The translations under genes and the position numbers were made by a program. Below, one piece after another: positions 10,415-38,454 of a stretch of 64,000 nt of DNA (within the stretch, counting starts at the first letter, position 1; every line of letters begins with the position of its first letter). The stretch is taken from the NCBI GenBank assembly GCA_016201765.1, contig JACQCE010000062.1:11419-75418 (forward strand), in the 5' to 3' direction. The notes under the pieces are model-generated. The model had not been told where the DNA came from, searched no databases, and saw only the letters and a list, made by a program, of their open reading frames with translations. The stretch comes from Nitrospirota bacterium. Lineage in GTDB: Bacteria; Nitrospirota; Nitrospiria; JACQCE01.

Positions 10415-11074
10415 ATCGCCACAAAACCACGAGTCAACAGGGAGATCAAGACCGACAAAATCCGCGTGATCAGCTCGAAGAACGAGCAATTGGGCGTCCT
10501 GCTCGTTCCCGAGGCGTTGCGCCTGGCGGAAGCGGAGGGGCTTGATCTGGTCGAAGTTGCGCCCACGGCCGCGCCGCCGGTCTGCCGTATCATGGATTAC
10601 GGCAAATACAAGTATGAGCAAACCAAGAAACAGCACGCGGCCAAGCTCCACCAACGCGGCACCCAGCTCAAGGAGGTGAAATTCCGCCCCTTCACGAGCC
10701 AGCATGACGTGGATTACAAGCTCCGCCATGCCATCGACTTTCTGGCCGACGGCCACAAGGTCAAGCTGACCGTCATGTTTCGGGGACGGGAGCTCGCGCA
10801 CCAGGAGGCGGGGCACGCGCTCCTTGACCGGCTGAAGACCGCGCTGGCGGATGTCTGCACGCCGGACCATCCGGCCCGGACGGAAGGACGGAATATGATG
10901 ATCATCGTGTCGCCGAAGGCGCAGGCCGTCGGCAAGCGCAAGACGGCGGCAAAACCCAAAAAAGCGGCGGCATCAGGCGCGGTGAAAAAATCGCCGACGC
11001 CGGCCGAGGCACCCGCAGCCGTCGCACCCGCGCCACCCGCGGGTCCGGCGAGCGAAACGACAAAGGACGCATAA
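10415..11074 (+). CDS. infC: translation initiation factor IF-3, probable non-canonical AUC start
   Basis: Strong similarity to the IF-3 N- and C-domains (PPVCRIMDYGKYKYEQ, KEVKFRP, VKLTVMFRGRE). The conserved N-terminal residues (NREIKTDKIRVI) lie upstream of the first ATG at 10466, in frame. ATC at 10415 lies 6 nt after a GGAG sequence. Confidence 0.75.
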   Translation: MATKPRVNREIKTDKIRVISSKNEQLGVLLVPEALRLAEAEGLDLVEVAPTAAPPVCRIMDYGKYKYEQTKKQHAAKLHQRGTQLKEVKFRPFTSQHDVDYKLRHAIDFLADGHKVKLTVMFRGRELAHQEAGHALLDRLKTALADVCTPDHPARTEGRNMMIIVSPKAQAVGKRKTAAKPKKAAASGAVKKSPTPAEAPAAVAPAPPAGPASETTKDA

Positions 11075-15839: not shown

Positions 15840-17311
15840 GATTCCCTCCCCTTGACCAGCCTGGCGGCGAAAAAGCCGTCCATCCGCTCGCCTTTCAGCA
15901 CGGTGGAAAGATAGCCCTCCTGGGTCAGCAGCGTGGCCGCCGAGTCGGGCAGCAACGGCCGGGGATGCTCCAGCCGGAACGTCCGCTGCCGCTCCAGAAA
16001 TGCCTCGACCACCGACTGATTTTCCTCGGGCTCGGTCGAGCAGGTGCTGTAGACCAGGACGCCGCCCGGCTTGAGCAACGGCGCGATATTCGACAGGATC
16101 GCCAGCGCCGTCCGGGCCGAGTCGTGAATCGACCGGGCCGTCTTGATCCACTTCCCCTCCGGATGGCGGCGCAACACGCCGAGGCCTGAACAGGGCGCAT
16201 CGACCAAAATACGGTCGAACTTCATCCCCTCGGCCGTCGGCAGCCGCTTGGCCGCATCGGCCGCCATGGTCCGGATGATGGTCACGCCCAGCCGCCGGTT
16301 GTTCGCCTCCACCACCGCCAGCCGTTCGGGATTTCGGTCGACGGCCAGCACCGAGCCGCGGTTGTCCATCAACTCGGCCATCTCGGTCGCCTTGCCGCCC
16401 GGCGCCGCGCAGGCGTCGAGCGCCGTGTCACCGGGTTTCGGCGCCAGCAGCAACGGCACCAATTGCGACGCTTCATCCTGCACGTAGAACCAGCCCGAGG
16501 CGTAGCCGGGCAGGCCGGTCACCGCCCCGTCATGCTCGACATGAAGGCCGGCCGGGGCATGGGCGCAGCGCGTCGACGCAATGCCCTCCTCCTGCAGGAT
16601 GCGTTGATAGTCGGCCACGCCGAGCTTGAGCCGGTTGACGCGGATCGTCAGCGGCGCGGGCTCGTTGTTCGCCCGGCAGAGCGCGATCGTCCGCTGCGAC
16701 CCGTAGCGTTTGAGCCAGCGCCTGACCAGCCAGGTCGGATGGGAATAGTTGACCGAGATGTGCTCGATCGGCTGTTGCAGGAGATCCGGCAGCGTCCATT
16801 CGTGCCGGCGGATGATCAGGTTCCGCAACAGGGCGTTCACCAGCGGCGCGCTCTTGGCGCCCAGCCGCGCCTTGGTCAACTCCACCGACTGGTCGACCGC
16901 CGCGTAGTCAGGCACCCGCTTGAGCCAGAGCAACTGGTAGGCGCCCAACCGCAGAATCTGCTTGAGGACCGCCTGACGGGTATACGGCGTCTGATGCGCC
17001 ACCTGCTGCAGCCCCCAATCGAGAAAAAGCCGATGGCGCAAGACGCCATTGACCAGTTCATGGAGCAGGGCGCGGTCATCGGATGACAGAGGGGATGACA
17101 GAGGGGATGACAGAGGGGATGACAGGGGGGATGAGAGCGGGGTGGCGCCCTGCCGGGCCGCCTGATCGATCGCCTGCTGCGCGGTCGTCTTGCCCGTGTC
17201 GATTGCGAGCAACGCGGTGACGGCCGCCTGCCGGGCCGGCGTGCCGCGATACGTTGCCGACGGGCTTTTTTTTGAGACACGCGTTGCGGTCATGGCAGCG
17301 GATCTCCGCAC
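15836..17311 (-). CDS. rsmB: 16S rRNA (cytosine967-C5)-methyltransferase RsmB/Sun
   Basis: N-terminal NusB-like domain. C-terminal SAM-dependent methyltransferase with PCSGLGV and DAPCSG-type motifs. Contains a (PLSS)5 repeat. Confidence 0.85.
   Translation of the reverse strand: MRRSAAMTATRVSKKSPSATYRGTPARQAAVTALLAIDTGKTTAQQAIDQAARQGATPLSSPLSSPLSSPLSSPLSSDDRALLHELVNGVLRHRLFLDWGLQQVAHQTPYTRQAVLKQILRLGAYQLLWLKRVPDYAAVDQSVELTKARLGAKSAPLVNALLRNLIIRRHEWTLPDLLQQPIEHISVNYSHPTWLVRRWLKRYGSQRTIALCRANNEPAPLTIRVNRLKLGVADYQRILQEEGIASTRCAHAPAGLHVEHDGAVTGLPGYASGWFYVQDEASQLVPLLLAPKPGDTALDACAAPGGKATEMAELMDNRGSVLAVDRNPERLAVVEANNRRLGVTIIRTMAADAAKRLPTAEGMKFDRILVDAPCSGLGVLRRHPEGKWIKTARSIHDSARTALAILSNIAPLLKPGGVLVYSTCSTEPEENQSVVEAFLERQRTFRLEHPRPLLPDSAATLLTQEGYLSTVLKGERMDGFFAARLVKGRES
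17081..17140. repeat. 12-bp tandem repeat (GGATGACAGAGG x3 plus 2 degenerate copies) inside rsmB
   Basis: Five head-to-tail units. Encodes PLSSPLSSPLSSPLSSPLSS on the minus strand. Confidence 0.8.
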
Positions 17312-18366: not shown

Positions 18367-18933
18367 TCACAACGCGCCGGCTGATTCCTCCCGTTCATCA
18401 TGATCATGATCGCACGTGTGATCATGCACGTGCGTCGTCCGCATCCGCTTGCGATGGCGGCGCAGAAACATGTTCCGTTTCAAACTGCTGATCCGATCGA
18501 TCAACAACCGGCCGTTGAGATGATCAGTTTCATGCTGAAAGAGCCGGGCCAGCAACCCCTCCCCCTCCAGCGTCACCACCTTCCTCGTGCGATCCATCCC
18601 CTGGATCTTCACCCAGTTGGCCCGGCTGACCACCACCCGGTAATCGGGCACGCTCAAGCAACCCTCATCATCCGACTGGGCGCCGCGTCGCTCCAGAATC
18701 ACCGGATTGATGAGCGCCTGGGGTTGCCGCGCGCCGTCCGTGTGGCCGATGTCGTAGACGAACAACCGCAGCGGCACGCCGATCTGCGGCGCGGCCAGAC
18801 CGATGCCCGGCGCGTCATACATCGTCTCGATCATATCCTCAATGAGCCGGTCGATCTCGGCGTCCACGCGCTCGACCGGCCTGGCCGGTTGCCGAAGCAC
18901 CGCCTCGGGAAACTCAACAATGGGTCGTATCAT
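18367..18933 (-). CDS. def: peptide deformylase with His/Asp-rich C-terminal tail
   Basis: GIGLAAPQIG, EGCLSVP and HETDHLNG metal-binding motifs. C-terminal tail HVHDHTCDHDHDE. Confidence 0.9.
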   Translation of the reverse strand: MIRPIVEFPEAVLRQPARPVERVDAEIDRLIEDMIETMYDAPGIGLAAPQIGVPLRLFVYDIGHTDGARQPQALINPVILERRGAQSDDEGCLSVPDYRVVVSRANWVKIQGMDRTRKVVTLEGEGLLARLFQHETDHLNGRLLIDRISSLKRNMFLRRHRKRMRTTHVHDHTCDHDHDEREESAGAL

Positions 18934-19030
18934 GTGACTGGTGGCTTGATGTTTGCACTCATCCCACACCGCGCAGCGTCGACATTCTGACACGCTTCCC
19001 GGCCAAAATCAACCGACTCAGATACAAGAG

Positions 19031-19148
19031 AAGGTGGCTTGGTGGTAAGGTCGCTGGGTAGCCAGGGAGAGATCATTGGAGCGCTGGGTGGCGCCCATGA
19101 TCACGGAGTTCCCCAGCCACCTAACCACCCAGCCACCGAGCTACCTTC
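19031..19148. repeat. palindromic array of degenerate 8-bp units (GGTGGCTAGGT family), copy 2
   Basis: aaggtggcttggtggtaaggtcgctgggtagccaggg ... ccccagccacctaaccacccagccaccgagctacctt. Directly upstream of the tRNA-fMet promoter. Confidence 0.55.
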
Positions 19149-19157
19149 TTACTTTCC

Positions 19158-19187: not shown

Positions 19188-19226
19188 GCGGTCGCGGGGT
19201 GGAGCAGCCTGGTAGCTCGTCGGGCT

Positions 19227-19890
19227 CAATTCCGCGAGAACAACGTGGAAACCAAACTCAAGGGAGATATCGCAGAGCAGGCGGCCACTCTTCAAGCCCT
19301 GAAGCGTGGATGGGGAGTGCTCAAGCCCGTGGGGGACCGGTTGCCGTATGACCTGGTCCTCGATGTGGCGGGAGTCCTCGTCAAAGCGCAGGTCAAGTCT
19401 GCCTGGCTTGATGAGTCTTCTCAGAATCATGTCATCGACAATCGTCGCACCAAAACGAACCGTCGCGTCATGATTCGAGAGACCTATCAGCCCGAGGATT
19501 TTGACTTTGCGCTGGCTTACCTGCCTGAGTTAGATCTGTTTTATGTCTTCCCGGTCGAGGTTTTCATTGGCTACGGCAGTGAAATCCATTTGGTCGAAGC
19601 CGACAAGCGGCAGCGGAAGCCCCGGTCTTCAGGCTATCGCAACGCTTGGGAGTTGATCTCGCAATGGGCTGCGCAGAAGGAAACTTCTGTGCGATATCCT
19701 GTCAAATTCGGGGAAGCCGGTGATTCGGTAATCCCGAGCCAAGCGCTGGCAGCCGCAAGGCCGCTGGCGAAGGTGTAGAGACTTAATGGCAGGCACCCTC
19801 CGGTTCGGCCGAGGGTGAAGAGAAAGTCCAGACTGCAAACTGGTCCATCGTAGCGAACGCGGGCCAGGCAGCGAAAGCTGTAGCGGTACG
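19227..19890 (+). mobile_element. 664-bp intron in the anticodon loop of tRNA-fMet (probable group I intron), carrying a homing-endonuclease-like ORF
   Basis: The boundary 5' exon ...U | intron ... G | C 3' exon is the only placement consistent with the group I rule (U before the 5' splice site, terminal G of the intron). The 3' portion contains a GNRA hairpin (CAGCGAAAGCUG). The Synechocystis tRNA-fMet group I intron encoding I-Ssp6803I is a precedent. Confidence 0.65.
19245..19778 (+). CDS. intron-encoded PD-(D/E)XK-fold nuclease (putative homing endonuclease, I-Ssp6803I-like)
   Basis: 177-aa ORF entirely inside the intron. GTG start. Motif E(QAA)...PYDLVLDVAGVLVKAQVK fits a restriction-endonuclease-like D...(E/Q)xK core. 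Confidence 0.6.
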   Translation: METKLKGDIAEQAATLQALKRGWGVLKPVGDRLPYDLVLDVAGVLVKAQVKSAWLDESSQNHVIDNRRTKTNRRVMIRETYQPEDFDFALAYLPELDLFYVFPVEVFIGYGSEIHLVEADKRQRKPRSSGYRNAWELISQWAAQKETSVRYPVKFGEAGDSVIPSQALAAARPLAKV

Positions 19891-19934
19891 CATAACCCGA
19901 AGGTCAGAGGTTCAAATCCTCTCCCCGCAACAAT

Positions 19935-22852: not shown

Positions 22853-23070
22853 GTGACCATGAGCGGAACCAGACCAAGTACCGTGCGCTGGCAAATTCTA
22901 GGTCTGTCGTTCGTGATCAGCGTGGTCACCTACGTGGATCGAGTGAACCCCGTACCACGGCTTCACAGCCGTGGCATCGGGGATAACTCTTCGGGCTGAC
23001 CACATCCTTCCTCCCCGCCTTGACAGGCGAGGCTTCCTTCGTGGTACGGGGTGAACATTGCCGTCGCCGG
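22853..23070 (+). pseudogene. truncated 5' fragment of an MFS transporter gene (paralogous to the 26032 MFS start), interrupted by a 102-bp insertion
   Basis: Nucleotide and protein match (TRPSTVRWQILGLSFVISVVTYVDRVN | IAVAG) to MDPQQPSRIRWQIVGLLFVISVVTYVDRVNIAVAG of the intact MFS. The reading frame diverges and terminates shortly afterwards. Confidence 0.55.
22949..23050. mobile_element. MITE-like 102-bp insertion with 11-12-bp terminal inverted repeats and a 6-bp direct duplication (GTGAAC)
   Basis: CCCGTACCACGG ... CGTGGTACGGG. Flanked by GTGAAC on both sides. Splits the VDRVN|IAVAG coding sequence of the MFS fragment. Confidence 0.4.
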
Positions 23071-23371
23071 CACGATCAAGGTCCTGAGACCGGCATTGAT
23101 CGAGCTTTTTCAAGAGCGTCAGTCGGGCTCGATAATATCTTAAACCCGGAAAGCGAGCGCAGTCCCCGCCTTCGCCTCGAACAAATGTGAGAGGTCATGT
23201 CCGATGTTGGTACCACTAACACCTCGGGGGGCAAGTGAACGAAGCTCACAAGGCCCCTTTCCACTCGGGCCGCAGAATCCCCGCCTTTGCCCCGAATCTT
23301 CGATTCTTAGTACAAACCTAGGCGGGGTTCTTCAACTTTCAGTGGAAAACATCTCCGGGGGAATTTTTCAC

Positions 23372-23400
23372 TTGACTCCGGCCGCCTGGAGCGCTATAAA
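23372..23400 (+). promoter_or_regulatory. sigma70-like promoter TTGACT-N17-TATAAA upstream of ADH-fusion paralog A
   Basis: Consensus-like hexamers. Leaves an about 255-nt leader before the ATG at 23662. Confidence 0.4.
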
Positions 23401-23661
23401 GGGGCCATTCCAGCGGCTTGAGGGGGCGAAGCCTGCGGGGACGCACGACAGGCGGTTCGCTCCCATGCCCGCATTAGTTTGTCAGCTTCTTCCGCGTTTT
23501 TTTCACTACACAAGAGGGCCAACGCACGTCTCAGGGCTGTGTCAAGGAGCTCTGATGGCTGGCGGCTTCTTTTCTCCTCAGCCTTCCCGTGGCGATCCGG
23601 GCGCCGACGGGGCCCAGCCCGAACCACACGCACGTACATTCCACCAACGCTGGAGGTTCCC

Positions 23662-25842
23662 ATGATGCCCTCACTCGTCCGCCATTGGCCCGTGTCGTCG
23701 CACAATCTGAAAAAAATCGCGTTCCTGCTGCTGCTCGGCGCGTCGGTTGCCGTCATCAGCATCCTCGTGCCGTCCAATGTCAGCCCCACGGTGTCGCCCT
23801 TGCACGGACAGACCCAGGAACTCGCGGGTTGGATGATCCAGGCCGTGGCCCAGTATGATCGCGAACGGCACACCCTGCTCAAACGGCAGATCGGGCAACT
23901 CGCCCGACAGATCAACCAATTCACGCAGAACCGGACCGGCCGTTTGCAGGAACAGTTCGGCCAGGCGATCGTGCAGACCCATCAGCGGATTCGCGCCGAA
24001 TGGATGCACCTGCGGGCCGAACGGGCGGCCACGGCACGAGCGTTGGATCAGATCATCGACACCCGATCGGCGCAATGGCAGGAGCAGTTGGGCAGGACCA
24101 TCGTGACCACCGCGCAGCGCGTTCCGGAGGGCGGCGCCGCCTTTCAGGCGGCGCTGCAGAAGAACGTGGCGCACCTGAGGCGGGTCGCGGAGCGAGCCGC
24201 CGCCCGGCTGAGCGATCAACTGGACGAATTGACACGCCAGCAGGCTGATTTTCCAAGTCTCATCGCCCTGCTCTACAAGGAGGCAATCGCCTCCGCCGGC
24301 CGATCCGCCCGGATGTTCGACGAAGGGCACCTGGCATGGGCGACCCGGGTCCATGCCGAGCTGGACCAGCAGGTCAAGTGGCAACGGCCGTCCGACGCCT
24401 ATGCGCAACTGGAGCTGGCGGCCAGATCGGCCTTGACCGGACCGGCCGGTGCCGGCGGCTTTATCGAATTCGGCCTCCCGGCGCTCGCGGGGCTGGTCTT
24501 CGTCATGGCGTGGTGCGGCACAACCCTGCGGAAGGACACGGACGCCGCCATGAACCGGAAAATCATCGGCCCCACGAAACCGCTCCTCCGGGAGCACGAT
24601 CGATCGGACGCCGAGGCGGACACCATGCGGCAACCCGTTCTCCTGTTTAGCTGGCCCAAAGAGGTCGTCTTCGGCGTCAACGTCTCGGCGACCATCGGGC
24701 GGTACGCCGCCAAGGATCGCGTTCACAAAGCGCTGCTGATCACCGACCGCAACCTCCACGACCGCGGCCTGCTGGAACCGCTGAAGGCGTCATGCTCCGG
24801 CGCCGGGATCGGGTGGACCGTCTACGACGAGGTCGCGCACGAGGCGCCCGACACGAACATCAGCAAGGCCTGCGAGACGTGCCGTCACACGGCGGCGGAT
24901 TTGATCGTCGCGGTCGGCGGCGGCAGCGTGATCGACACGGCGAAGGCGGTCGGGATTCTCGTCACCAACGGCGGCCGGCTCCAGGACTATGAGGGCCTGG
25001 ACAAGGTCCCCTCCCCGCCGCCGCATTTCTACGCCGTGCCGACCACCGCCGGTTGCGGCAGCGAAACCAGCCAATTCTGCGTCGCGCTGGATACCGCGCA
25101 CAAGCGGAAACTGGAGATCATCAGCCGCCGCGTCATCCCGCAGATGATCTTCATCGACCCGGCGTTGATGCTCACCATGTCCCCGGAGCTGACGGCCGGC
25201 AGCGGGATCGATGCGCTGACGAACGCGATCGAAGCCTATTGCTCCACCTGGGCCAGCCCGCTGACCGACACCCTGGCCTTGCACGCCATTCGGCTGATCG
25301 CGGGCGCGTTGCGCGTGGCCGTGTCCAACGGCGCCAACCTCGAAGCGCGCCGGCAAATGGCGGTGGCGGCGTTCGAAGCCGGCCTGGCGTTCAACAACGC
25401 CCAGTGCGGGGCGGCCCACGCCTTGGGCCACCCGATCGCCGGGCTGTTGAACGTGCCGGAGCGGCTGAGCGAAGGCATCCTCCTGCCGCATGTTATGCGC
25501 TACAATCTGCGCGCGGGCATGGCCCCCCGTCTGGCGGAGGTGGCCGGCGCCCTGGGCGAGCGGGTGGAGGACCTCGACCCGCAGGCCGCGGCGGAACGGG
25601 CCGTCATCGCCGTGCAGTGGCTGTTGTCGGATATCGGACTCCCCGCCACCCTGGACAAGATCGGCGTGGCCAAGGAGGCCATCCCGGAACTGACCCGGCA
25701 GGCGGCGCAGGACACCTTTCTGCGGACAAACCCGCGCACGTTGCACGCGCAAGAGATCGAACACCTCTATCTCCGCGCCTTTGAGGAACAAGCATGGAGA
25801 GCCTACGCCTCAGTGAACCGATGGGATGAGACGGTGCACTGA
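23662..25842 (+). CDS. membrane-anchored fusion protein: N-terminal TM / about 270-aa helical domain / TM / C-terminal iron-containing alcohol dehydrogenase (Fe-ADH family), paralog A
   Basis: C-terminal about 390 aa with Fe-ADH motifs GGGSVIDTAKAVG, VPTTAGCGSETS, GIDALTNAIEAYCS, CGAAHALGHPIAG. Hydrophobic segments near the N-terminus and at GFIEFGLPALAGLVFVMAWCG. RBS GGAGG 5 nt before ATG 23662. Confidence 0.8.
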   Translation: MMPSLVRHWPVSSHNLKKIAFLLLLGASVAVISILVPSNVSPTVSPLHGQTQELAGWMIQAVAQYDRERHTLLKRQIGQLARQINQFTQNRTGRLQEQFGQAIVQTHQRIRAEWMHLRAERAATARALDQIIDTRSAQWQEQLGRTIVTTAQRVPEGGAAFQAALQKNVAHLRRVAERAAARLSDQLDELTRQQADFPSLIALLYKEAIASAGRSARMFDEGHLAWATRVHAELDQQVKWQRPSDAYAQLELAARSALTGPAGAGGFIEFGLPALAGLVFVMAWCGTTLRKDTDAAMNRKIIGPTKPLLREHDRSDAEADTMRQPVLLFSWPKEVVFGVNVSATIGRYAAKDRVHKALLITDRNLHDRGLLEPLKASCSGAGIGWTVYDEVAHEAPDTNISKACETCRHTAADLIVAVGGGSVIDTAKAVGILVTNGGRLQDYEGLDKVPSPPPHFYAVPTTAGCGSETSQFCVALDTAHKRKLEIISRRVIPQMIFIDPALMLTMSPELTAGSGIDALTNAIEAYCSTWASPLTDTLALHAIRLIAGALRVAVSNGANLEARRQMAVAAFEAGLAFNNAQCGAAHALGHPIAGLLNVPERLSEGILLPHVMRYNLRAGMAPRLAEVAGALGERVEDLDPQAAAERAVIAVQWLLSDIGLPATLDKIGVAKEAIPELTRQAAQDTFLRTNPRTLHAQEIEHLYLRAFEEQAWRAYASVNRWDETVH

Positions 25843-26031
25843 CACACGCCCCCCGGCACATCAACCGGTTTCAGGGCCCGCGAGGGAAGGCTTGCCTCGT
25901 CGAGTCCCCCCGCGCAAACATGAGCGGTCAGGGCGCTGAGGGAAATTCTCGGTCTCATCGGCCCAATCTGCTTGTGTTCCCCCCATTGCTTTTCCCTCCC
26001 CCCTGACATACCATCGGCGGAGCCTTCCGCC

Positions 26032-27318
26032 ATGGATCCGCAACAACCAAGCCGCATCCGCTGGCAAATCGTGGGATTGTTGTTCGTGATCAGCGTGGTG
26101 ACCTACGTGGATCGCGTCAATATCGCCGTCGCCGGCAAGCTCATGATGCCGGAGTTCGGCCTGTCGGCCGTGCAGATGGGGACGGTCTTCTCGTCATTCG
26201 TCCTGGGCTATGCGCTTTTTCAAATCCCCGGCGGCTGGATGGGCGATCGATGGGGCGCCCGGCTGGTGCTCGCGGCGGCGGTGCTCTGGTGGTCGCTCTT
26301 CACCGTCCTCACGGCCGCCGCAGCTCATCCATTGTTGTCGTCGACGATCGGCGCGCTGGGCGCCCTGCTCGCGGTGCGGTTTCTCATCGGCGTGGGCGAA
26401 GCGGCGGCACTGCCCAACTTCAACCGGACGGTGGCCGACTGGCTCGCGCCGTCGGAACGGGGCGTGGGCATGGGCATCTCGATCGGCGGGATCGGTTTCG
26501 GCTCCGCGATCACGCCGCCGCTCGTCGCCTGGCTGATGACGCGCTACGGATGGCCCGTCGCCTTCTATGTAACGGGCGGGATCGGCCTGCTGGTAGCGGC
26601 AATCTGGTATGGACTGGCCCGGGACCGCCCGCATGAACATCCACGCGTCAACAGGGCCGAACTTGACTGGATCACCCAGGCGGCGCCCGCCGCGCCGGCC
26701 ACCGACTCGCCGTCGCCGCCATTCGGCGCGCTGCTGAAGCGGCCATCGGTCTGGTTTCTCACGCTCAGTTATACGATGCTCGGGTATATCGCGTATATCT
26801 ACCTCTCCTGGTTTTTTCTCTATCTGGTCAACGTCCGCCACTTTACCGTCCTGCAGGGCTCGTTCTGGGCCGCCGGCCCGTTTCTCGCCATGGCGGTGGG
26901 CTGCCCGGCCGGCGGATGGCTCAGCGATCGACTCACGGCCCATTATGGCCATCGGATTGGACGGGCCGGCGTCGGCGGGTCGGGACTGGTGCTCACCGCC
27001 GGCTTCATCTACAGCGGCGCCGGCGTCGATGATCCCTATGCGGCCATCATTCTGCTCTCGCTGGGGGCGGGCATACTCTATGCCACGGCGGGCGCCTACT
27101 GGGCGAGCACGATCGATCTGTCTCCGCATCATGCCGGCGCGCTGTCCGGTCTGATGAACATGGGCGCCAATCTCGGCGGCGTCGTCTCACCAACCCTGAC
27201 GCCGCTCATCGGTGAACGATGGGGCTGGCCGGTCGCCCTGACCGTCGCGGCCGGTGTGGCGTTGATCGGGGGTTTGCTGTGGCTGGGTGTGACAGATCAT
27301 GAAGAACGATCGGCCTGA
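26032..27318 (+). CDS. MFS transporter
   Basis: 12 predicted TM helices. MFS loop motif GxLaDRxGaR (GGWMGDRWGARL). Alternative upstream start at 25972. Confidence 0.75.
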   Translation: MDPQQPSRIRWQIVGLLFVISVVTYVDRVNIAVAGKLMMPEFGLSAVQMGTVFSSFVLGYALFQIPGGWMGDRWGARLVLAAAVLWWSLFTVLTAAAAHPLLSSTIGALGALLAVRFLIGVGEAAALPNFNRTVADWLAPSERGVGMGISIGGIGFGSAITPPLVAWLMTRYGWPVAFYVTGGIGLLVAAIWYGLARDRPHEHPRVNRAELDWITQAAPAAPATDSPSPPFGALLKRPSVWFLTLSYTMLGYIAYIYLSWFFLYLVNVRHFTVLQGSFWAAGPFLAMAVGCPAGGWLSDRLTAHYGHRIGRAGVGGSGLVLTAGFIYSGAGVDDPYAAIILLSLGAGILYATAGAYWASTIDLSPHHAGALSGLMNMGANLGGVVSPTLTPLIGERWGWPVALTVAAGVALIGGLLWLGVTDHEERSA

Positions 27319-27435
27319 CCTCCAAATCGGCCTCATACGGACGGAAGGATCAGCATATCAAGTGCTTGCAGGCCACCACCCGCCAGCCAAATTATCCGCC
27401 CAGTTGCAGATGACCGGCATCGGATCGGAATAGAT

Positions 27436-27590
27436 ATTCGAACCGGGTAGTGGGTCAGTTTGATGGATTCCACCGTGGCAAAAATGGGGACACGTCCCAA
27501 TTTCGTTGCGTGCCGTGCGTCGCACGAGGACATTGGGACGTGTCCCCATTTTTGAGCCGGTTGCGGTGAAACTGACCCACTACCTCGAAC
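27436..27590. repeat. about 155-bp nested perfect/near-perfect palindrome
   Basis: Outer arms TCGAACCGGGTAGTGGGTCAGTTT / AAACTGACCCACTACCTCGAACC. Inner arms AAAAATGGGGACACGTCCCAATTTCG / ATTGGGACGTGTCCCCATTTTT. Central GTGCGTCGCAC palindrome. Confidence 0.8.
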
Positions 27591-27598
27591 CGATTGTA

Positions 27599-27627
27599 CT
27601 TGACATTATTTCCGAAGAGGCGTATAA
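27599..27627 (+). promoter_or_regulatory. sigma70-like promoter TTGACA-N17-TATAAG upstream of ADH-fusion paralog B
   Basis: Immediately after the 155-bp palindrome. About 345-nt leader. Confidence 0.4.
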
Positions 27628-27972
27628 GTCGAGTATCAACAGTTGAAAAACGGGCCGTGGTGTTGTGTTGCGGCGCCCGGCTCGCAGCAGGATCATTTCC
27701 CCTCGTTTTATCTGCACTACTTCCAGCAACGGAAGGTTCAGTGTGGCCCGGAGCCGAAAGGATGCGCTCCGAAGGCTTGGCATTTTCTTTTTCCGCCCGT
27801 CTGTTGTTGAAGAATCACGCCTTTACAGGCTGGGATTCTTCGACATGAGTGGAGAAAGGCTCCTTGGTATCCGCTCGCTGACCCCGCCTTCAGAGGGCGG
27901 GGATTGCGCTCGCTATGCATGTTCGCCGCACATGCCCTCCGGGCGTGTGCACACCAACGGAGGTGCCGAGCC

Positions 27973-30159
27973 ATGAACCGGACACATCACATCATGCGGC
28001 CGATCGGATCCAGCGGGCGGCGTCTGCTCCTGCCCGCAAACCTTGTTGCAATCTGCGTGATCGGGCTGCTGGCCCCGCAGGCCGCACCGGCTGCACCAAC
28101 ACCGACTCACGACCAGCTTCAGCAGCGGCTCGGCCAGACCATCGTCATGGTGGCCCGGCACGATCAAGCGCTCCTGGACCGACAGGTGGAGCAGATGACC
28201 CGGCTGATGCGGGGAAGCACACGGTTCCAGCAGGGCCAGGCCGGGCGGATAGAGGAAAGTCTCGGGCTCGCCATCATCAAGACGGCGGGCTCGATTCAGG
28301 AGGAGCAGTCCGCTCTGAAGAGTCGCATGATCCTTATTGGCCGTGAGCTTGATCTGCTGTCGGAAGATTCCGCGGCCGGCCGTCAGACACAACTGGGGTG
28401 GGCGGTTCGCACGGCCGCGCAACGCGCGCCACAAGGCGGCGCGGCCTTTCAGGCCGCGCTGGGGAAGGAGATCACCCGGCTGGAACAGGTCCGGCAACGC
28501 ACGACCATCCGCCTGCAGGATGAGCTGCGCGCTCTGAAACGCCTGGACGCCGACTTTGCCCAAACCATTCCGCAACGTTACCAGAAGGCCATGGAGTCCA
28601 CCCGCCTGACGGTTCTCATGGCGGATGACTCCACTGTCGTCTGGACCGACCGACAACTCCAGGAATTGTCCCATCAGGTGCTGCAGCAACAATCTTCACA
28701 AGTCTATGCGCAACTGGCCGGCCTCACGCGGGCGGCCCTGACCGCGCCGGCCGGCGTCGGCGGGTTCATCGAATACGGCCTGGCCGCCATGACCGGAGCG
28801 ATGGCCGTCATGGTGTGGTTCGGCCTATCGACCAGAAAGGAGAGAGCCCCGTTGCCCGTCAATCCCACAGACGAGGCCGTGTCATCACTGCGCCGCTGGA
28901 GCATGCAAGGCGGCTCGGGGAACGGGGGCAACAGCCACGAGGCGAATATCCTGTCCCAGCTCGTCACATTCTTCAGCTGGCCCAGGGAGATCGTCTTCGG
29001 CAACAACGTGATCGGAACCATCGGGCGGTATGCCGAGAGGGAACGGATCAAGAGGGCGTTGGTGATCACGTCCCGGGACCTTCATCACCATGGCCTGCTC
29101 GAACCGCTGAAGGCATCCTTGTCGCACAGCGGGATTGCGTTCCGCGTCTACGACCACGTCGAGCACGACGTGCCCGACGTGGTCATCGCCAATGCCGGCA
29201 AAGAGTACCAACGAATGGCCACCGATCTGATTGTCGCAGTCGGCGGTGGGAGCGTCATTGACACGGCGAAAGCGGTGGGGATCCTTGCCACCAACGGTGG
29301 CCTCATCCAAGACTACGAAGGCTTGGACACCATCCCATCACCGCTGCCCCATTTTTTCGCCGTGCCCACCACCGCCGGCTGCGGCAGCGAAACGAGCCAG
29401 TTCTGCGTCGTGCTGGATACCGCGCACAAACGGAAACTGGAGATCGTCAGCCGTCTGGTCATTCCGCAGATGATCTTCATCGATCCGACGCTGATGGTCA
29501 GCATGCCGCGCGAACTGACGGCCGGCAGCGGAATCGATGCGTTAAGCAACGCGATCGAAGCCTACTGCTCCACGTGGGCCAGCCCCCTGACCGACACCCT
29601 GGCGCTGGACGCCGTCAGGCTGATCTCGGAGTCGTTGCGCACGGCCGTGGCCGACGGCAGCAATCTCGAAGCCCGGCGCCAGATGGCCGTGGCCGCATTT
29701 GAAGCCGGCCTGGCGTTCAACAACGCGCAGTGCGGAGCGGCGCACGCCCTGGGCCATCCGGTGGCCGGTCTGTTCAACGTGCCGGAGCGGGTGAGCGAAG
29801 CCATCTTGCTGCCGCATGTCATGCGGTACAACCTGGAAACCAACATGGCCAGGATGGCGCAACTGGCCGTGGCCATGGGGGAGTCGGTGGAAGGTCTCAC
29901 CCAACAGGAAGCGGCCGAGCAGGCGATCTCCGCCGTGCAATGGCTGCTGCTGGATATCGGTCTTCCAGCGACTTTTGACAAGCTTGGTGTCGCCAATGAC
30001 GCCATCCCCGAACTCGCCCGGCAAGCCGCGCAGGATTTCTTTCTGCGGACGAATCCTCGAACGCTCACCCGGGGGGAGATCGAGCAACTGTACCACCAAG
30101 CGTTTCAAAAGTTCGGCAGAGATACGGTGCATCGCAAAACCGCCGGCGTCATCCTGTGA
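27973..30159 (+). CDS. membrane-anchored TM / helical-domain / TM / Fe-ADH fusion protein, paralog B
   Basis: Same architecture and motifs as paralog A (about 60-80% identity in the ADH part). Shared N-domain motif AAQRxPxGGAAFQAAL and the TM segment GGFIEYGLAAMTGAMAVMVW. Confidence 0.8.
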   Translation: MNRTHHIMRPIGSSGRRLLLPANLVAICVIGLLAPQAAPAAPTPTHDQLQQRLGQTIVMVARHDQALLDRQVEQMTRLMRGSTRFQQGQAGRIEESLGLAIIKTAGSIQEEQSALKSRMILIGRELDLLSEDSAAGRQTQLGWAVRTAAQRAPQGGAAFQAALGKEITRLEQVRQRTTIRLQDELRALKRLDADFAQTIPQRYQKAMESTRLTVLMADDSTVVWTDRQLQELSHQVLQQQSSQVYAQLAGLTRAALTAPAGVGGFIEYGLAAMTGAMAVMVWFGLSTRKERAPLPVNPTDEAVSSLRRWSMQGGSGNGGNSHEANILSQLVTFFSWPREIVFGNNVIGTIGRYAERERIKRALVITSRDLHHHGLLEPLKASLSHSGIAFRVYDHVEHDVPDVVIANAGKEYQRMATDLIVAVGGGSVIDTAKAVGILATNGGLIQDYEGLDTIPSPLPHFFAVPTTAGCGSETSQFCVVLDTAHKRKLEIVSRLVIPQMIFIDPTLMVSMPRELTAGSGIDALSNAIEAYCSTWASPLTDTLALDAVRLISESLRTAVADGSNLEARRQMAVAAFEAGLAFNNAQCGAAHALGHPVAGLFNVPERVSEAILLPHVMRYNLETNMARMAQLAVAMGESVEGLTQQEAAEQAISAVQWLLLDIGLPATFDKLGVANDAIPELARQAAQDFFLRTNPRTLTRGEIEQLYHQAFQKFGRDTVHRKTAGVIL

Positions 30160-30369
30160 ACGGGCTCCATGACTGACCGGCCGCACGCTCCCCGGTCGCC
30201 GGTTACTTGATGTGGGGACCCGTGCGGAAAGAGCGAGGAAAGGTCCTCCGATGCCCCCACACCCCAAGCCACCGTTCATGTCCCATTGGCCACCGTAGCC
30301 CTTGATTCTTTCTTAGCCCGTGCGGAGAGATTTCGGAATCCAGCCGCCTGATCGACTCGAGTCTTCGCC

Positions 30370-33554: not shown

Positions 33555-34388
33555 TTGCCACACCACCGCCTCGTTCGATCGCTTGTGCTGCTCTCGGCCG
33601 TCATCCTGCCCTCCCTGTTCGGCGGTCCGGCGGGCTGTCAGCGACCCGCCGCCGCCCCGGGCATGGTCTGGATCCCCGGAGGCCCCTTCACCATGGGCAC
33701 CGATGAGACGGACGCGGAAGGGCGGGCACTGGAGTTCGGCCTGACCAAGCCGTGGTTTGAAGACGAGCATCCCACGCATACGGTCAACCTGCCCGGCTTT
33801 TATCTGGACCGTAATGAAGTGACCAACGCCGATTTTGCCGCCTATGTGGCTGCCACCGGCGCAAGGGTCCCGGGAACCTGGAAAGCCGCCACCTATCCCG
33901 GCGGCGAGTCGAACATGCCGGTGGCCAGCGTGAACTGGTACCAGGCGAATGACTATTGCGCCTGGGCGAAGAAACGGCTGCCGACCGAGGCGGAATGGGA
34001 GAAGGCGGCCCGGGGCACCGACGGACGACTCTATCCCTGGGGCAACGACTTCTCGCTCGACAAGGCGAATCTCATGTCCGGCTCGGTGCAGCCGGTGGGC
34101 CTGTTTGCGCGCGAGCCGAGCCCCTACGGCGTGAACGATCTGGTCGGCAACGTCTGGGAATGGACGGCGGACTGGTATCTGCCCTATCCGGGATCGACCG
34201 CCGCCTCAAAAGATTTCGGCCAGAAATTCAAAGTGGTGCGCGGCAAGTCCTGGACCAAGGGCTTCGGCCATCAGGAGAAGGCGGAGGTGAGCCAGATCAT
34301 CGCCCATGAAGCGCGCGGCGGCTTTCGGCTCTATTTCGATCCGGTTTTCGGATTCAACGACCTGGGGGTCAGATGCGCAAAATCTTAA
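33555..34388 (+). CDS. periplasmic FGE/SUMF1-fold (formylglycine-generating-enzyme family) protein 1, lacks the catalytic Cys pair
   Basis: FGE-sulfatase domain motifs (WIPGG.FTMG, HTVNLPGFYLDRNEVTN, RLPTEAEWEKAARG, NVWEWTADWY, GFRCA). Signal peptide. No CxxxxC near the C-terminus. Confidence 0.7.
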   Translation: MPHHRLVRSLVLLSAVILPSLFGGPAGCQRPAAAPGMVWIPGGPFTMGTDETDAEGRALEFGLTKPWFEDEHPTHTVNLPGFYLDRNEVTNADFAAYVAATGARVPGTWKAATYPGGESNMPVASVNWYQANDYCAWAKKRLPTEAEWEKAARGTDGRLYPWGNDFSLDKANLMSGSVQPVGLFAREPSPYGVNDLVGNVWEWTADWYLPYPGSTAASKDFGQKFKVVRGKSWTKGFGHQEKAEVSQIIAHEARGGFRLYFDPVFGFNDLGVRCAKS

Positions 34389-35470
34389 TCATGGCCGCAA
34401 GCATGCTTTACCTCGCGGCTGCGGCCAACGGGCAAACAACGGTGGCTCGGGGCGTGGGGGCATCGGAGGACCCTTCTTCGCTTGTGCCACACGGGCCCCC
34501 ACATTTAATGAAGCCCGCCTGCCGCCAGTGCCACATTGATGGGAAGAAACCCGTGGCCGATTACTCAAGCAATCCCGAATGCCGGGAATGCCATCTGCCT
34601 GACGGCAGAGCCTCCGGGCCGCCGACCGCCCCGGCCATTGCGGCGCCGGTTGCCGCCGGCGCGAATCCGCCGCATGCCGCGACCTCGGTCCAGTCTGGGG
34701 AGACGATCATCACGCAGAAAATGGTCTCCATCCCGGCCGGGCCGTTCTGGATGGGCAACAACGGCCGGGGCGCCGACGGTCCCGGCGACGAGGATGAACA
34801 GCCCCTGCATCAGGTCACGGTTGAGGCCTATTCAATGGACGTCTATGAAACCACCAATGCGATGTTCAAAGAGTTCGTCGACGCCGTCAACTATGCGACA
34901 CCCAAACTGTGGAAGAACGGCGTCTATCCAAGCGGCAAGGCCAACCATCCGGTCACGTACGTGTCATGGTTTGATGCGGAGGAATTCTGCCGGTGGGCCG
35001 GCAAGCGGCTGCCGACCGAGGCGGAATGGGAAAAGGCCGCCCGCAGCCCGGACAAACGGATCTTCCCCTGGGGGAATCAATTCGATCCGATGAAGGCCAA
35101 CACGCCGCAATACTGGATGGCCATCCATCAGAATGACACGGCTGATACCATGCCTGTCGGCAGTTTTGAGGCCGGGAAAAGCCCCTATGGCCTCTACGAC
35201 ATGTCGGGCAACGTCTATGAATGGGTCAATGATTGGTACACCCAGTATCCGGGCAACCGGTTTCCCAACGATCATTACGGCGCGAAGAACAAGATCGTCC
35301 GCGGGGGGTCGTGGTACGACTGCCTCTCCTACGGCTGCGGCTTGAGTTCCCCCACCTATAACCGCAGCCGGTTCAACCCAGACATCCGCAACAAGGGATT
35401 CGGATTCCGCTGTGCAAAATCCGCCCACGGACGCGCCAAATCCACAACCGGACAGCGAGGCGAGCCATGA
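34373..35470 (+). CDS. diheme cytochrome c fused to FGE/SUMF1-fold domain, retains C-x4-C (DCLSYGC)
   Basis: Two CXXCH motifs (CRQCH, CRECH) in the first 80 aa after a signal peptide. C-terminal FGE fold with the Cys pair positioned as in the catalytic Cys pair of human FGE (C-x4-C). Confidence 0.7.
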   Translation: MRKILIMAASMLYLAAAANGQTTVARGVGASEDPSSLVPHGPPHLMKPACRQCHIDGKKPVADYSSNPECRECHLPDGRASGPPTAPAIAAPVAAGANPPHAATSVQSGETIITQKMVSIPAGPFWMGNNGRGADGPGDEDEQPLHQVTVEAYSMDVYETTNAMFKEFVDAVNYATPKLWKNGVYPSGKANHPVTYVSWFDAEEFCRWAGKRLPTEAEWEKAARSPDKRIFPWGNQFDPMKANTPQYWMAIHQNDTADTMPVGSFEAGKSPYGLYDMSGNVYEWVNDWYTQYPGNRFPNDHYGAKNKIVRGGSWYDCLSYGCGLSSPTYNRSRFNPDIRNKGFGFRCAKSAHGRAKSTTGQRGEP

Positions 35471-36294
35471 AACAATGGTCATTGTTCACGTGGGCCGCGC
35501 TCGCGGCGCTGCTCGTGCTATCGGCTGCCTGCCAGAAACCGCCCCACGGCATGGTGCTCATTCCGGCCGGGGAGTTCATCATGGGCACGGACGAAGTGGA
35601 TACGGACAAGATCGGGCTCGGATACGGCATCGTCAAGCCCTGGTTCGACGACGAACATCCGAAGCGGCGGTTCTCCCTTCCCGCCTATTACATCGACCAA
35701 TACGAGATTACCAACGAGCAATACCAGGCGTTTCTGGTGGAGAGCAATCGCCGTCCGCCCCGGTACTGGCCCAACAATCAGTATCCGGCCGGCAAGGATC
35801 GCCATCCGGTGACGTGGATCACCTGGGAGGATGCCGACGCCTATTGCCGGAGGGCCGGCAAACTGTTGCCGACAGAGGCGCAGTGGGAGAAAGCGGCCCG
35901 GGGGCCCAACGGCCTGATCTATCCCTGGGGCAATGACTTTGATCCGGCCAAGGCGAACGTCGGCGGCTCAGCCGGCGGCACCAAACCGATCGGCAGCATC
36001 GAAGCGGGCAAGAGTCCGTACGGCGTGTACGACATGACCGGCAACGTCTGGGAATGGACGGCCGATTGGTATGAGCCCTACCCCGGCGCGCAATTCACCG
36101 CCGGGTTCTACGAGGATAAACTGGGGCACCGGTACAAGGTGATCCGTGGCCTCTCCTGGTCGCCGATCGGCCACTATGACGCCGAAGACGCCAAGGCGGT
36201 CATGCGCCACTACGCACGGGCGTCCTACCGGTTGTTTTACTATCCGAACGACGGGCTGGAGGATCTGGGGTTCCGATGCGTCAAACCGGCATAA
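35467..36294 (+). CDS. periplasmic FGE/SUMF1-fold lipoprotein 3, lacks the Cys pair
   Basis: Lipoprotein-like signal (LVLSAAC). FGE-fold motifs. ATGA overlap with the upstream gene. Its last about 100 nt are duplicated at 38017..38119. Confidence 0.7.
   Translation: MKQWSLFTWAALAALLVLSAACQKPPHGMVLIPAGEFIMGTDEVDTDKIGLGYGIVKPWFDDEHPKRRFSLPAYYIDQYEITNEQYQAFLVESNRRPPRYWPNNQYPAGKDRHPVTWITWEDADAYCRRAGKLLPTEAQWEKAARGPNGLIYPWGNDFDPAKANVGGSAGGTKPIGSIEAGKSPYGVYDMTGNVWEWTADWYEPYPGAQFTAGFYEDKLGHRYKVIRGLSWSPIGHYDAEDAKAVMRHYARASYRLFYYPNDGLEDLGFRCVKPA
36188..36291 (+). repeat. 103-bp direct repeat, copy 1 (3' end of FGE-fold gene 3); copy 2 at 38017..38119
   Basis: About 97% identity between the copies. 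They bracket the low-GC segment 36292..38016. Confidence 0.85.
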
Positions 36295-36316
36295 TAGTCC
36301 CAAGAACCTCGGTTCC

Positions 36317-36345
36317 TTGAATCTTAAAGGTATTTCTCCTATAAT
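36317..36345 (+). promoter_or_regulatory. sigma70 promoter TTGAAT-N17-TATAAT inside the low-GC cassette
   Basis: Perfect -10 hexamer. Near-palindrome AAGAACCTCGGTTCCTT overlaps the -35. Confidence 0.5.
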
Positions 36346-36418
36346 TTCATCATTCTAAGTCTTTGTGGCCTTATTATCTCGGCCGGTGTTGATCCATGTA
36401 CACGTCAAGGAGGCTGGT

Positions 36419-38014
36419 ATGGAGTCCTCCCTTCAAGCTGCAAAGCCAAACTTCCTGATTGTCATTGGCGTGCTCACCGCTATCGTATGCGTTGCAACAT
36501 CGGCAACCTGTGCAACAGGCATCATTTCTGACGTTCCAGAAGCCAAAAATCTTCTCATCCAAGCAAGCCATATCGCCGCAAAAATTAATGACAAATGGCA
36601 TATTAATGAACAACATGCCCTGGAACGAATTGCCCTCGCCCAGATCAATATTCAGGCACTTGAAGATGCTTTCAACACACTGTCGCTCATCAAAGAGGGA
36701 GACAAAGATCAGATATTGATCGCGATTGCTAAAGCTCAAACCCAAATAGGTGACGTCAAGGCCGCTCAACAAACAGCCAAAATGTTTAGATCAGGAATCA
36801 ACCAAAGCCATGCTCTGGCGGCAATCGCCGCCGCACAAGCACAATCTGCAAACGTCGATGCTGCACTAAAAACCGCATCCCTCATTGATCCTAAGACATC
36901 AGGGTATGAAATAGCCTACCAACAAATTTCTCGAGCCCAAATAGCAGACGGCAATCTAGACAGCGCACTAGTGACGGCCTCCCCCATTATGGACATCACG
37001 CCCTATGCTTTATGGGGCGCCATGAACGACCTCGTCTCAATTGGGAATCTGGATAGTGCCCGTCAATTAGCATCAAAAATCCCTGACCCATATCAGAAAG
37101 GATATGCCCTTGAAGGGTTGGTCGTGGCGCAGCTTCAAACAGGAGACATTCAGGGAGCGTTACACACTGCCGCCTCCATTGAAGCCGGCCATCCTCAAGC
37201 AAGCGCGCTCAAAGCCATTGCCGATAAACAGTTGAAAACTGGAGACAGCTCGGCTGCCCGACACACCCTCCAAGACGCCATTCAAGCGACAACACGCATT
37301 ACTAATAGCGGTGATATTGCCAAATCGGACATCTTGTGGCGTATTGCCGCCACTCAAGCGGCCGCTGGCGATCTCAATGGGGCAAAAGTGACCGCCGCTG
37401 CCATTAAAACCGAAGCCCATAAAGCCTTCGCCTTTCACGATATTGCCAGAGCACAGATTGCTCGCGGCGATATCGAGGGCGCACGAAAAACGATCAAGCA
37501 GATTGCAGAAGAACCGATCAGCCAATCCAATACTCGCTCCGTCGCTGAGCTAGACATTGCCGGTGCTCAGGTCAAGGCTGGCCATCTTTCCGACGCAAAG
37601 GCAACTGTCGACAGCCTAAACAAAGAGTATCGACAGACCGGGCTGGGTACAATTGCCAGGGTGCAGGCTGAGACAGGGGATTTCACTGGAGCCATGGAAA
37701 CTGTTGCCGCGATCAAAGACACCGACGTCAAATCTTCTACACTGCATGAAATCGCCCAAGCACAAACAAATGCAGGGGATTTTAAAGGTGCCGTGCAAAC
37801 AGTCGCCTTGATTCCAGATCAAGAACCGCAATGGCAGAAATTCGACACCCTGCGTGACATTTCTCGCGCTAGAGTAAAGACAACAAACGCAAAAGAGGTT
37901 CTTGCTTGGGCGAATACGATTACAAATCCGCTGGAGCATTCGGCCGCTTTACTCGGCATCGCCGAGGGCTTAATAAAAGAAAACCACTCACTGCCCCATA
38001 TCACTGCCCCATAA
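36419..38014 (+). CDS. secreted/lipoprotein-like protein with about 12 tandem 33-aa alpha-helical (HEAT / PBS-lyase-like) repeats, encoded on a low-GC cassette
   Basis: Repeat consensus IAxAQxxxGDxxxAxxTAxxI. N-terminal hydrophobic signal FLIVIGVLTAIVCVATSATC. Strong RBS AAGGAGG. GC clearly lower than the flanks. Confidence 0.7.
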   Translation: MESSLQAAKPNFLIVIGVLTAIVCVATSATCATGIISDVPEAKNLLIQASHIAAKINDKWHINEQHALERIALAQINIQALEDAFNTLSLIKEGDKDQILIAIAKAQTQIGDVKAAQQTAKMFRSGINQSHALAAIAAAQAQSANVDAALKTASLIDPKTSGYEIAYQQISRAQIADGNLDSALVTASPIMDITPYALWGAMNDLVSIGNLDSARQLASKIPDPYQKGYALEGLVVAQLQTGDIQGALHTAASIEAGHPQASALKAIADKQLKTGDSSAARHTLQDAIQATTRITNSGDIAKSDILWRIAATQAAAGDLNGAKVTAAAIKTEAHKAFAFHDIARAQIARGDIEGARKTIKQIAEEPISQSNTRSVAELDIAGAQVKAGHLSDAKATVDSLNKEYRQTGLGTIARVQAETGDFTGAMETVAAIKDTDVKSSTLHEIAQAQTNAGDFKGAVQTVALIPDQEPQWQKFDTLRDISRARVKTTNAKEVLAWANTITNPLEHSAALLGIAEGLIKENHSLPHITAP

Positions 38015-38016
38015 AT

Positions 38017-38119
38017 AACGCCAAGGCGGTCATGCGCCACTACGCACGGGCATCCTACCGGTTGTTTTACTATCCGAACGACGGGCTGGAGGATCTGGGG
38101 TTCCGGTGCGTCAAACCGG
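38017..38119 (+). pseudogene. orphan duplicated 3' end of FGE-fold gene 3 (direct repeat copy 2)
   Basis: Encodes ...AKAVMRHYARASYRLFYYPNDGLEDLGFRCVKPV with no upstream gene body. Confidence 0.7.
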
Positions 38120-38125
38120 TATAGC

Positions 38126-38250
38126 AGTGACGAGTGTCGAGTGACAAGTGGCAAAAATGAAAATGCCGAATTTCGAATAAAGATCGCCTAACAATACTTC
38201 TACTCGACACTTGTCACTCGTCACTTATCACTATCACTCATCACTCGCCA
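38126..38250. repeat. palindromic array of GTGACGAGTG-type units
   Basis: gtgacgagtgtcgagtgacaagtggc ... AT-rich centre ... ctcgacacttgtcactcgtcacttatcactatcactcatcactcgccac. Confidence 0.55.
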
Positions 38251-38454
38251 CTATTCCTTCTTCCCCGTCGTATCAATCTTCAACCACGCGCTGATCGGAC
38301 AGTAGGCCGTCACGGCCGTCAGCAGGCCGGCAACCCCCACAATCCCGAAGACCACCTTCCAGACCAGTTGATCGGTGGCAAAAAACAGCGCCAGACAGAG
38401 AAATCCAACCCCGAAGCGAAAGATCCGGTCCACCATGCCGACGTTCTGCTTCAT
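38251..38454 (-). CDS. small membrane protein, DUF2892 (YgaP-like) family
   Basis: Two TM helices with the RIFRFGVGFLCLAL...AYCP pattern typical of DUF2892. Confidence 0.45.
   Translation of the reverse strand: MKQNVGMVDRIFRFGVGFLCLALFFATDQLVWKVVFGIVGVAGLLTAVTAYCPISAWLKIDTTGKKE

Follow-up and report, generated by a model that had tools for sequence, protein, structure and literature searches.

The 64,000-nt stretch of DNA analysed here (the window; Nitrospirota bacterium assembly GCA_016201765.1, contig JACQCE010000062.1, positions 11,419 to 75,418 of the forward strand) carries an insert of about 1.7 kb at the 3' end of FGE3, the third of three tandem genes of the FGE-sulfatase fold. The DNA between the two copies of the FGE3 gene end is a genuine insertion of compositionally foreign DNA, and FGE3 was kept intact. 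The insert contains a promoter-like site, a ribosome-binding site and one intact open reading frame (ORF), referred to below as the cargo gene. Because 12 related contigs keep the empty site, sequence comparison identifies the insert as a lineage-specific gain of a horizontally acquired gene. As it stands, this is an ordinary gene gain and a known kind of event; the explanation we favour, with a probability of about 0.5, is that a small DNA circle entered by Campbell-type (single-crossover) integration and that the insert now looks static.

Organization of the insertion site

The three FGE-fold genes occupy positions 33555-34388, 34373-35470 and 35467-36294 and are followed by the 1.7-kb segment of low guanine-plus-cytosine (GC) content and then by a second FGE3 end. 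The site is laid out as follows (position, strand, feature).

35467..36294, +, FGE-fold gene 3 (FGE3), the target gene, intact, 275 aa (Pfam E = 4e-51)
36188..36298, +, left repeat copy: functional FGE3 3' end including the stop codon (repeat alignment, polarised against relatives)
36302..36318, no strand, imperfect palindrome AAGAACCTCGGTTCCTT, overlapping the -35 hexamer (fold against shuffles; one occurrence in the window)
36317..36345, +, sigma-70-like promoter TTGAAT-17-TATAAT within the AT-rich first part of the insert (10/12 consensus matches only)
36407..36413, +, ribosome-binding site AAGGAGG, 5 nt before ATG 36419 (read from the sequence)
36419..38014, +, cargo gene, 531 aa, N-terminal hydrophobic helix and TPR/PPR-like solenoid (translation, Pfam, AlphaFold2, Foldseek)
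37988..38013, +, perfect 13-nt tandem duplication (TCACTGCCCCATA twice; read from the sequence)
38018..38128, +, right repeat copy: fragment of the FGE3 3' end, displaced and not in the frame of the cargo gene (repeat alignment, polarised against relatives)
38126..38232, no strand, long hairpin with 25-bp arms of short repeated motifs, between convergent units (inverted repeat)
38251..38454, -, YgaP-like membrane protein gene (Pfam PF11127; synteny)

The two copies of the gene end form a direct repeat of 111 nt with 95% identity. All five differences between them are transitions (left/right: 36222 G/A, 36276 A/G, 36290 C/T, 36294 A/G and 36295 T/C), and three fall in the first 103 nt, which is the repeat length and mismatch count of a preliminary description made from the sequence alone; the alignment bears that description out and extends the repeat to 111 nt. 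The window contains exactly two occurrences of a 34-mer taken from the repeat; 100 of 100 shuffled sequences lack this 34-mer, and no other repeat of such length and identity lies within the 64 kb. The left copy comprises the last 107 nt of FGE3 and ends 0-4 nt past its stop codon, while the right copy begins 4 nt after the cargo stop (38014 to 38018). The FGE3 product ends in ...GFRCVKPA*, as do orthologues of 94%, 81%, 80% and 77% amino-acid identity; an exact look-up of the protein found no identical record. The right copy, translated alone, would give ...GFRCVKPV*.

We polarised the differences between the copies by comparison with relatives. The left copy has one derived change, the synonymous CGG>CGA, against three in the right copy, namely GCG>GCA, GCA>GTA (Ala>Val) and TAA>TAG. 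Small as these numbers are, they fit a left copy that behaves as a selected, working gene end and a right copy that behaves as a neutral, decaying and untranslated remnant. TTG and GGGG are states common to both copies and distinct from L085, one of the closer relatives. Because both copies share the states of the window's lineage, the duplicated DNA is, on this comparison, the lineage's own, and neither copy is a divergent version brought in by a foreign element. The segment is 96% identical to the closest relatives, and the whole gene about 87-91%. There are 5 differences per 111 nt between the copies versus 4 between the 107 nt of the left copy and the closest relatives, which suggests, again on small numbers, that the insertion was not very recent; an event of that age would leave the tight repeat boundaries saying little on mechanism.

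The segment between the copies has a GC content of 49.8% versus 62.2% for the window and is its lowest-GC stretch, in line with the lower GC already reported for it. The accompanying proposal to examine codon usage was followed: GC content at third codon positions (GC3) is 0.476 in the cargo gene versus 0.782 +/- 0.052 in 46 window genes (z = -5.9), and the codon-usage distance of the cargo gene from the pooled genes is the maximum of the window (z = +4.0). The ribosome-binding site and the single gene were both found where they had been described. The proposed promoter stands as a sequence match, agreeing with the consensus at 10 of 12 positions, but promoter-like sites are not in excess in the region (4 found versus 2.3 +/- 1.5 expected from shuffles).

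At the left junction, the palindrome had been put forward as a possible part of a recombination site. Its symmetry is imperfect, and its folding does not exceed that of shuffled sequence (z = -0.24), which does not uphold that role. At the right junction, the cargo gene's final codons and its stop consist of the 13-nt tandem duplication, which lies 4 nt short of the right repeat copy; were only one 13-nt unit present, the cargo ORF would terminate at a junction-spanning TAA. No terminal inverted repeats were found at the insert ends.

Empty sites in related genomes

The 12 related contigs (L002/L095, L085-L090, L091-L094 and L096) represent at least five lineages, with 76-90% nucleotide identity, and share the same synteny, a single copy of the segment and no insert. 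The YgaP-like gene is the first native gene past FGE3 in all relatives. In the nearest species-representative genome, L002 (FGE3 81% amino-acid identity, region about 78% nucleotide identity), both flanks are collinear with the window and the FGE3 stop is directly followed by the YgaP-like gene.

Closer relatives, L085-L090, were retrieved via the FGE3 protein and comprise four Joint Genome Institute metagenome contigs and two Logan contigs. Their FGE3 is 94% identical, their nucleotide identity is 86-91%, and in each of them 90 bp separate FGE3 from the YgaP-like gene. The stretches of L085 that match the window's left flank and its right flank have precisely the 107 nt that are duplicated here in common (10722-10828). 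L091 and L092 (FGE3 80% and 77% amino-acid identity) likewise have one copy and no insert, as do L093-L096, which were retrieved with a degenerate DNA pattern for the FGE3 terminus that matched only 4 metagenome contigs. The window between 25 and 48 kb is gene-for-gene syntenic with annotated relatives. The preliminary description had named the same arrangement at native GC in related genomes as what would speak against an insertion; every relative examined was empty, the opposite of that.

Support for the junctions in sibling assemblies

We compared the window with Logan k=31 contigs from sibling sequencing runs. L001 (SRR12113410) matches window 36246-38047 at 100% identity and covers the entire cassette together with both of its junctions. 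L097 (SRR12113409) matches window 48454-38076 and L098 (SRR12113389) window 39499-38192, each at 100% identity. The start of L001 and the end of L097 each lie exactly 30 nt (k-1) from the copy-specific single-nucleotide polymorphism (SNP) at repeat position 89. These 30-nt stops fit two distinct repeat copies in the sample, since a k=31 graph would fork there. Both novel junctions are real, and the concern that the repeat might be an assembly artefact is not borne out for them.

The cargo gene and its product

The cargo protein is identical to the NCBI entry "hypothetical protein HY208_05360 [Nitrospirae bacterium]". The preliminary description took it for a HEAT/PBS-lyase-like repeat protein, which it is not. 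The only Pfam match was TPR_19 (54.9 bits, cut-off 25). An AlphaFold2 model with a predicted local distance difference test score (pLDDT) of 87 shows a hydrophobic helix at residues 12-33, after which 28 helices form about 14 hairpins, and the best PDB matches of this model in Foldseek were TPR/PPR solenoids (the OGT TPR domain, Tom70 and designed PPR proteins). The protein thus has the tandem helix-turn-helix repeats of about 34 aa, wound into a superhelix, that define a TPR-like alpha-solenoid, and the model suggests that it serves as a TPR-like scaffold. The N-terminal helix is predicted to be a signal peptide or membrane anchor, and export or membrane anchoring of the protein is probable. 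The sole NCBIfam match, to the FimV C-terminus, was weak and below cut-off, and PADLOC and PHROGs gave no match.

Alignment of the protein with its homologues extends over the full length, takes in a conserved C-terminal W...P...ALLGxAEGIL motif and shows a conserved architecture; the cargo gene is therefore complete. The proposed search with the cassette protein, run against 5.8 billion protein clusters, returned a best homologue, besides the protein itself, of 33% amino-acid identity. The homologues sit in contigs of about 51% GC among other, unrelated neighbours, and no repeats flank them. Their GC content is consistent with transfer out of a donor of lower GC content, probably about 50%, that may itself have belonged to the Nitrospirota.

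In some metagenomic homologues (P0013-P0037), repeats like those of the cargo are fused to sigma-70, trypsin-like peptidase or caspase (PF00656) domains. Such fusions hint that repeats of this type may act as a partner-binding module in signalling or proteolysis.

Signals of mobility

Pfam scans took in essentially all sizeable ORFs of the window. The genes identified have housekeeping and respiratory roles; none encodes an integrase, a transposase or a reverse transcriptase, which agrees with the preliminary description as regards an integrase. Inside the insert, whose sole gene encodes the TPR-like protein, there is no tyrosine or serine recombinase gene, which integrative elements usually carry beside one attachment site. 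Cassette DNA had no match in plasmids or phages, and viral contigs contained neither relatives of the cassette nor the 29-mer of its promoter. The 12 orthologous contigs and 80 FGE loci contained neither a second copy of the cassette nor a different cargo at the site, and a self-comparison of 98 loci revealed no other duplicated FGE 3' end.

Two of the features expected of an integrative element are present, namely direct repeats that include an intact target-gene 3' end (the 111-nt repeat, with FGE3 ending as in its orthologues) and an unoccupied attachment site, attB, in related genomes (the 12 contigs). Evidence of mobility was not seen, as no related element or other cargo was found at the site. 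The insert resembles a cis-mobilizable element (CIME) in form only, having flanking repeats and no recombinase; no parent integrative and conjugative element (ICE) or integrative and mobilizable element (IME) of the same attachment (att) specificity was found in the window, the 12 orthologous contigs or the 80 FGE loci. Insertion sequences, transposons and miniature inverted-repeat transposable elements do not match the site, where the duplication is 107-111 nt long (not 2-14 bp), no transposase is found and no other copy exists. Nor does an integron cassette, as an FGE3 coding fragment lies 3' of the ORF, the insert ends bear no inverted-repeat pair, and there is no intI.

Origin of the insertion

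In Campbell-type integration, the insert comes to lie between direct repeats of the homologous segment, and the gene stays intact if the segment holds its 3' end. Here, a single crossover would have joined a DNA circle of about 1.83 kb, bearing the same segment of about 107 nt, to the chromosome. It would have left FGE3 complete as the left copy and displaced the second copy to the far side, where it would be untranslated and decaying. The crossover may have been made by RecA on about 100 nt of homology or by a site-specific recombinase encoded elsewhere, and the resulting islet would now be static and retained. Transcripts of the cargo gene would arise either at its own promoter or through read-through of the FGE operon and would stop at the native hairpin at 38126-38232. 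This hairpin folds better than shuffled sequence (z = -3.7 on the + strand, z = -5.3 on the - strand) and is probably a native bidirectional terminator, now also used by the cargo gene.

Several points weigh against a single crossover with a circle. Within the 64 kb there is no integrase, and neither a second integration event nor a circular form was observed. A 1.83-kb circle carrying a host gene end lacks a demonstrated origin. The same two illegitimate joins are needed in any model, which makes capture directly at a break roughly as parsimonious. Little can be learned from the tight boundaries, as selection-bounded deletions could have trimmed a longer duplication. Finally, the k=31 contigs end within the repeat and do not phase the SNPs across its 53-nt identical core.

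The strongest competitor, which we nevertheless consider unlikely, is illegitimate capture of foreign linear DNA at staggered or sister-chromatid breaks or at a tandem-duplication junction, followed by deletions that trimmed the duplication to 107-111 nt, a route with neither a circular intermediate nor a crossover that depends on homology. It would make the only two novel joins directly, and the copies, with 5 differences per 111 nt, have had time for deletional streamlining. The boundary abuts a stop codon on each side, as if deletions had halted where selection starts, and the 13-nt tandem duplication at the right junction resembles the slippage footprint of illegitimate joins. However, a target duplication of more than 100 nt is not known from bacterial end-joining or from any transposase, no clear microhomology is present at either junction, and two coordinated breaks would be required.

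The preliminary description saw in the locus the footprint of site-specific integration into a gene end. Its observations of an insertion, a duplicated gene end and an intact FGE3 hold, but no evidence of site-specific recombination was found, and homologous or illegitimate recombination would account for the footprint just as well as an integrase that works in trans. An att-flanked cassette without its integrase, either a CIME-like remnant or a minimal cassette moved in trans, in which a tyrosine or serine recombinase acted at the FGE3 3' end and the element's copy regenerated that end, is in our view a doubtful explanation. Repeats that end at the stop of a conserved gene and leave that gene intact are the hallmark of such integration, e14 at icd/icdC being the classic case (PMC13626634), and CIMEs keep attL and attR without integration and transfer genes (PMC5704250). 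The compact cassette with its own promoter and the empty site in relatives point the same way. Against this stand the missing recombinase, the lack of any remnant of other element genes, and the single occurrence of the cassette at the loci surveyed. In addition, both copies show the lineage's own states rather than those of a divergent, element-borne version, the palindromic site is not significant, and the cargo homologues lack flanking repeats. The earlier suggestion of a remnant or a cassette moved in trans is thus unsupported, with no close relative of the cassette and no other use of the site found.

It is improbable that the insert is a minimal mobile unit consisting of a promoter, a gene and an att-like gene end of about 107 nt, excised as a 1.83-kb circle and reinserted at FGE3 by a recombinase encoded elsewhere. 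If it were, the unit would be a Nitrospirota chromosomal counterpart of integron cassettes and CIMEs, with its own promoter and the 3' end of a protein gene as attachment site. A cassette moved in trans would define a very small class of mobile unit.

An insert that is not chromosomal at all is very unlikely. The assembler would have merged an empty-site chromosome with a circle of about 1.83 kb (the cassette and one repeat copy) or with strain variants. Taken alone, both junctions are compatible with a circle, the k=31 contigs break in the repeat and leave the SNPs at repeat positions 35 and 89 unphased, and the source is a metagenome-assembled genome. Yet the copies differ at five positions and enter different flanks alike in assemblies of separate runs, a circle of 1.8 kb would have no replication gene, and the derived changes fit a functional copy and a remnant.

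Still less credible is an ancestral arrangement from which the relatives lost the cassette by recombination between the repeats. Recombination between direct repeats of about 100 nt would restore a perfect empty site, and the empty site alone gives no direction; however, 12 empty contigs in at least five lineages would call for many independent losses, the cassette is strongly foreign in GC3 and codon usage, and both copies share states of the window's lineage.

A diversity-generating retroelement (DGR), with the copies as variable repeat (in FGE3) and template repeat, was rejected and can practically be dismissed: in the most numerous class of DGR targets, an FGE-sulfatase domain bears the variable repeat at its C-terminus (PMC5758913), and the repeat of about 107 nt covers exactly the FGE3 3' end, but DGR changes fall at adenines of the template repeat (PMC3240598), and here the template would have A at only 1 of 5 differences with the right copy as template or 2 of 5 with the left, no reverse transcriptase or Avd is present in the window, conservation of the segment exceeds that of the gene as a whole, the opposite of hypervariation, and relatives have no second copy.

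Other features of the window

Upstream of FGE3 lie the two other genes of the tandem array.

33555..34388, +, FGE-fold gene 1 (PF03781; Pfam E = 5e-51; synteny kept in relatives)
34373..35470, +, FGE-fold gene 2 (PF03781; Pfam E = 1e-58; domain from residue 115)

A GC-rich element of 82 nt occurs twice in inverted orientation with 83% identity (30210-30291 on the - strand and 34423-34504 on the + strand) and has a stem GTGGGGGC...GCCCCCAC. One copy is intergenic and the other lies within the supposed N-terminal extension of FGE-fold gene 2. A search of the element, which lies in the leader of that gene, against Rfam gave no match. Because the element overlaps the supposed extension, the real start of FGE-fold gene 2 may be an ATG near 34508.

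Long hairpins built of short degenerate motifs (for example GGTGGCTAGGT... and GAGTGACAAGTG...) were found in several intergenic regions (3279-3370, 19040-19150, 27440-27590 and 38126-38245). The orthologous spacer between FGE3 and the YgaP-like gene in relatives contains other motif-built hairpins, such as TTTCGATT repeats in L085. Together, they may represent a fast-evolving family of terminators or of elements like repetitive extragenic palindromic (REP) sequences. In L003, a related groundwater Nitrospirota contig, four copies of an intergenic element of about 80-120 nt (12570-12650, 14869-14989, 16237-16357 and 18915-19010; core GCGAGCGAGAGGGGGAGGCTCCATCCGGCTTGGCCGGTGGAGGGGGCGACG) lie between successive genes downstream of the FGE gene, and this element also looks REP-like.

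A tRNA-fMet gene at 19193-19932 (+) is split in the anticodon loop. Its 5' exon ends in ...GGGCTCA at 19228, its 3' exon TAACCCGAAGG... begins near 19892, and the gene goes uncalled by ARAGORN. What interrupts it is a group I intron (Rfam RF00028, 57.5 bits, 19650-19842) with an ORF at 19245-19778 that encodes a PD-(D/E)XK endonuclease domain (PF11645, E = 2e-49), which we take to be of the I-Ssp6803I type, as in the cyanobacterial tRNA-fMet intron.

A segmental duplication at 22873-30159 comprises a module of a major facilitator superfamily (MFS) transporter and an Fe-alcohol dehydrogenase (ADH). The ADH fusion genes at 23479-25842 and 27904-30159 are paralogues with 68-72% nucleotide identity, and a 75-nt fragment at 22873-22947 resembles the MFS N-terminus (81%). 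L085 and L086 have only one MFS/ADH module.

Comparison with known systems

The locus offers a well-bounded gain of a single accessory gene in an uncultured Nitrospirota, in which the empty site, both junctions and the displaced remnant are all visible, and it helps to calibrate how often long att-like duplications arise without a nearby integrase. It also advises caution, as a duplicated gene end is not always the footprint of an integrase and a repeat at the end of an FGE-fold gene is not always a DGR.

The element e14, inserted at icd in E. coli, leaves icdC and thereby a footprint like that of the present insert (PMC13626634). As here, e14 and phage 21 insert at the 3' end of a protein gene, with the complete gene on one side and a pseudogene of its C-terminal fragment on the other, and recombination or excision between the copies would restore a single gene (PMC13626634). 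In contrast to the present insert, e14 is a prophage of about 15 kb with its own integrase and a divergent copy of the gene end; ours is 1.7 kb long and has one cargo gene, no recombinase and two copies that are both the lineage's own.

A CIME is an element that has no integration or transfer genes but retains attL and attR (PMC5704250), and it shares with the present insert the direct repeats at the target gene's end (PMC5704250). CIMEs are, however, recognised via a functional ICE or IME of the same att specificity, and here neither such an element nor decayed genes of one were found.

DGRs resemble the locus in having a repeat of about 100-130 nt over the 3' end of an FGE-sulfatase-fold gene, FGE-fold C-termini being their commonest targets (PMC5758913). 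The present repeat differs in that it comes with no reverse transcriptase, adenine pattern or hypervariability.

An integron cassette is likewise a single compact gene unit without its own recombinase. It is usually promoterless, its attC is an imperfect inverted repeat, and it stands in arrays beside intI and attI, whereas the present insert has flanks of duplicated coding fragment, its own promoter and no intI.

Campbell-type integration is known mainly from laboratory constructs and from plasmid integration, and the natural 1.8-kb circle that it would require here is our inference, but the integration of suicide plasmids yields exactly this structure.

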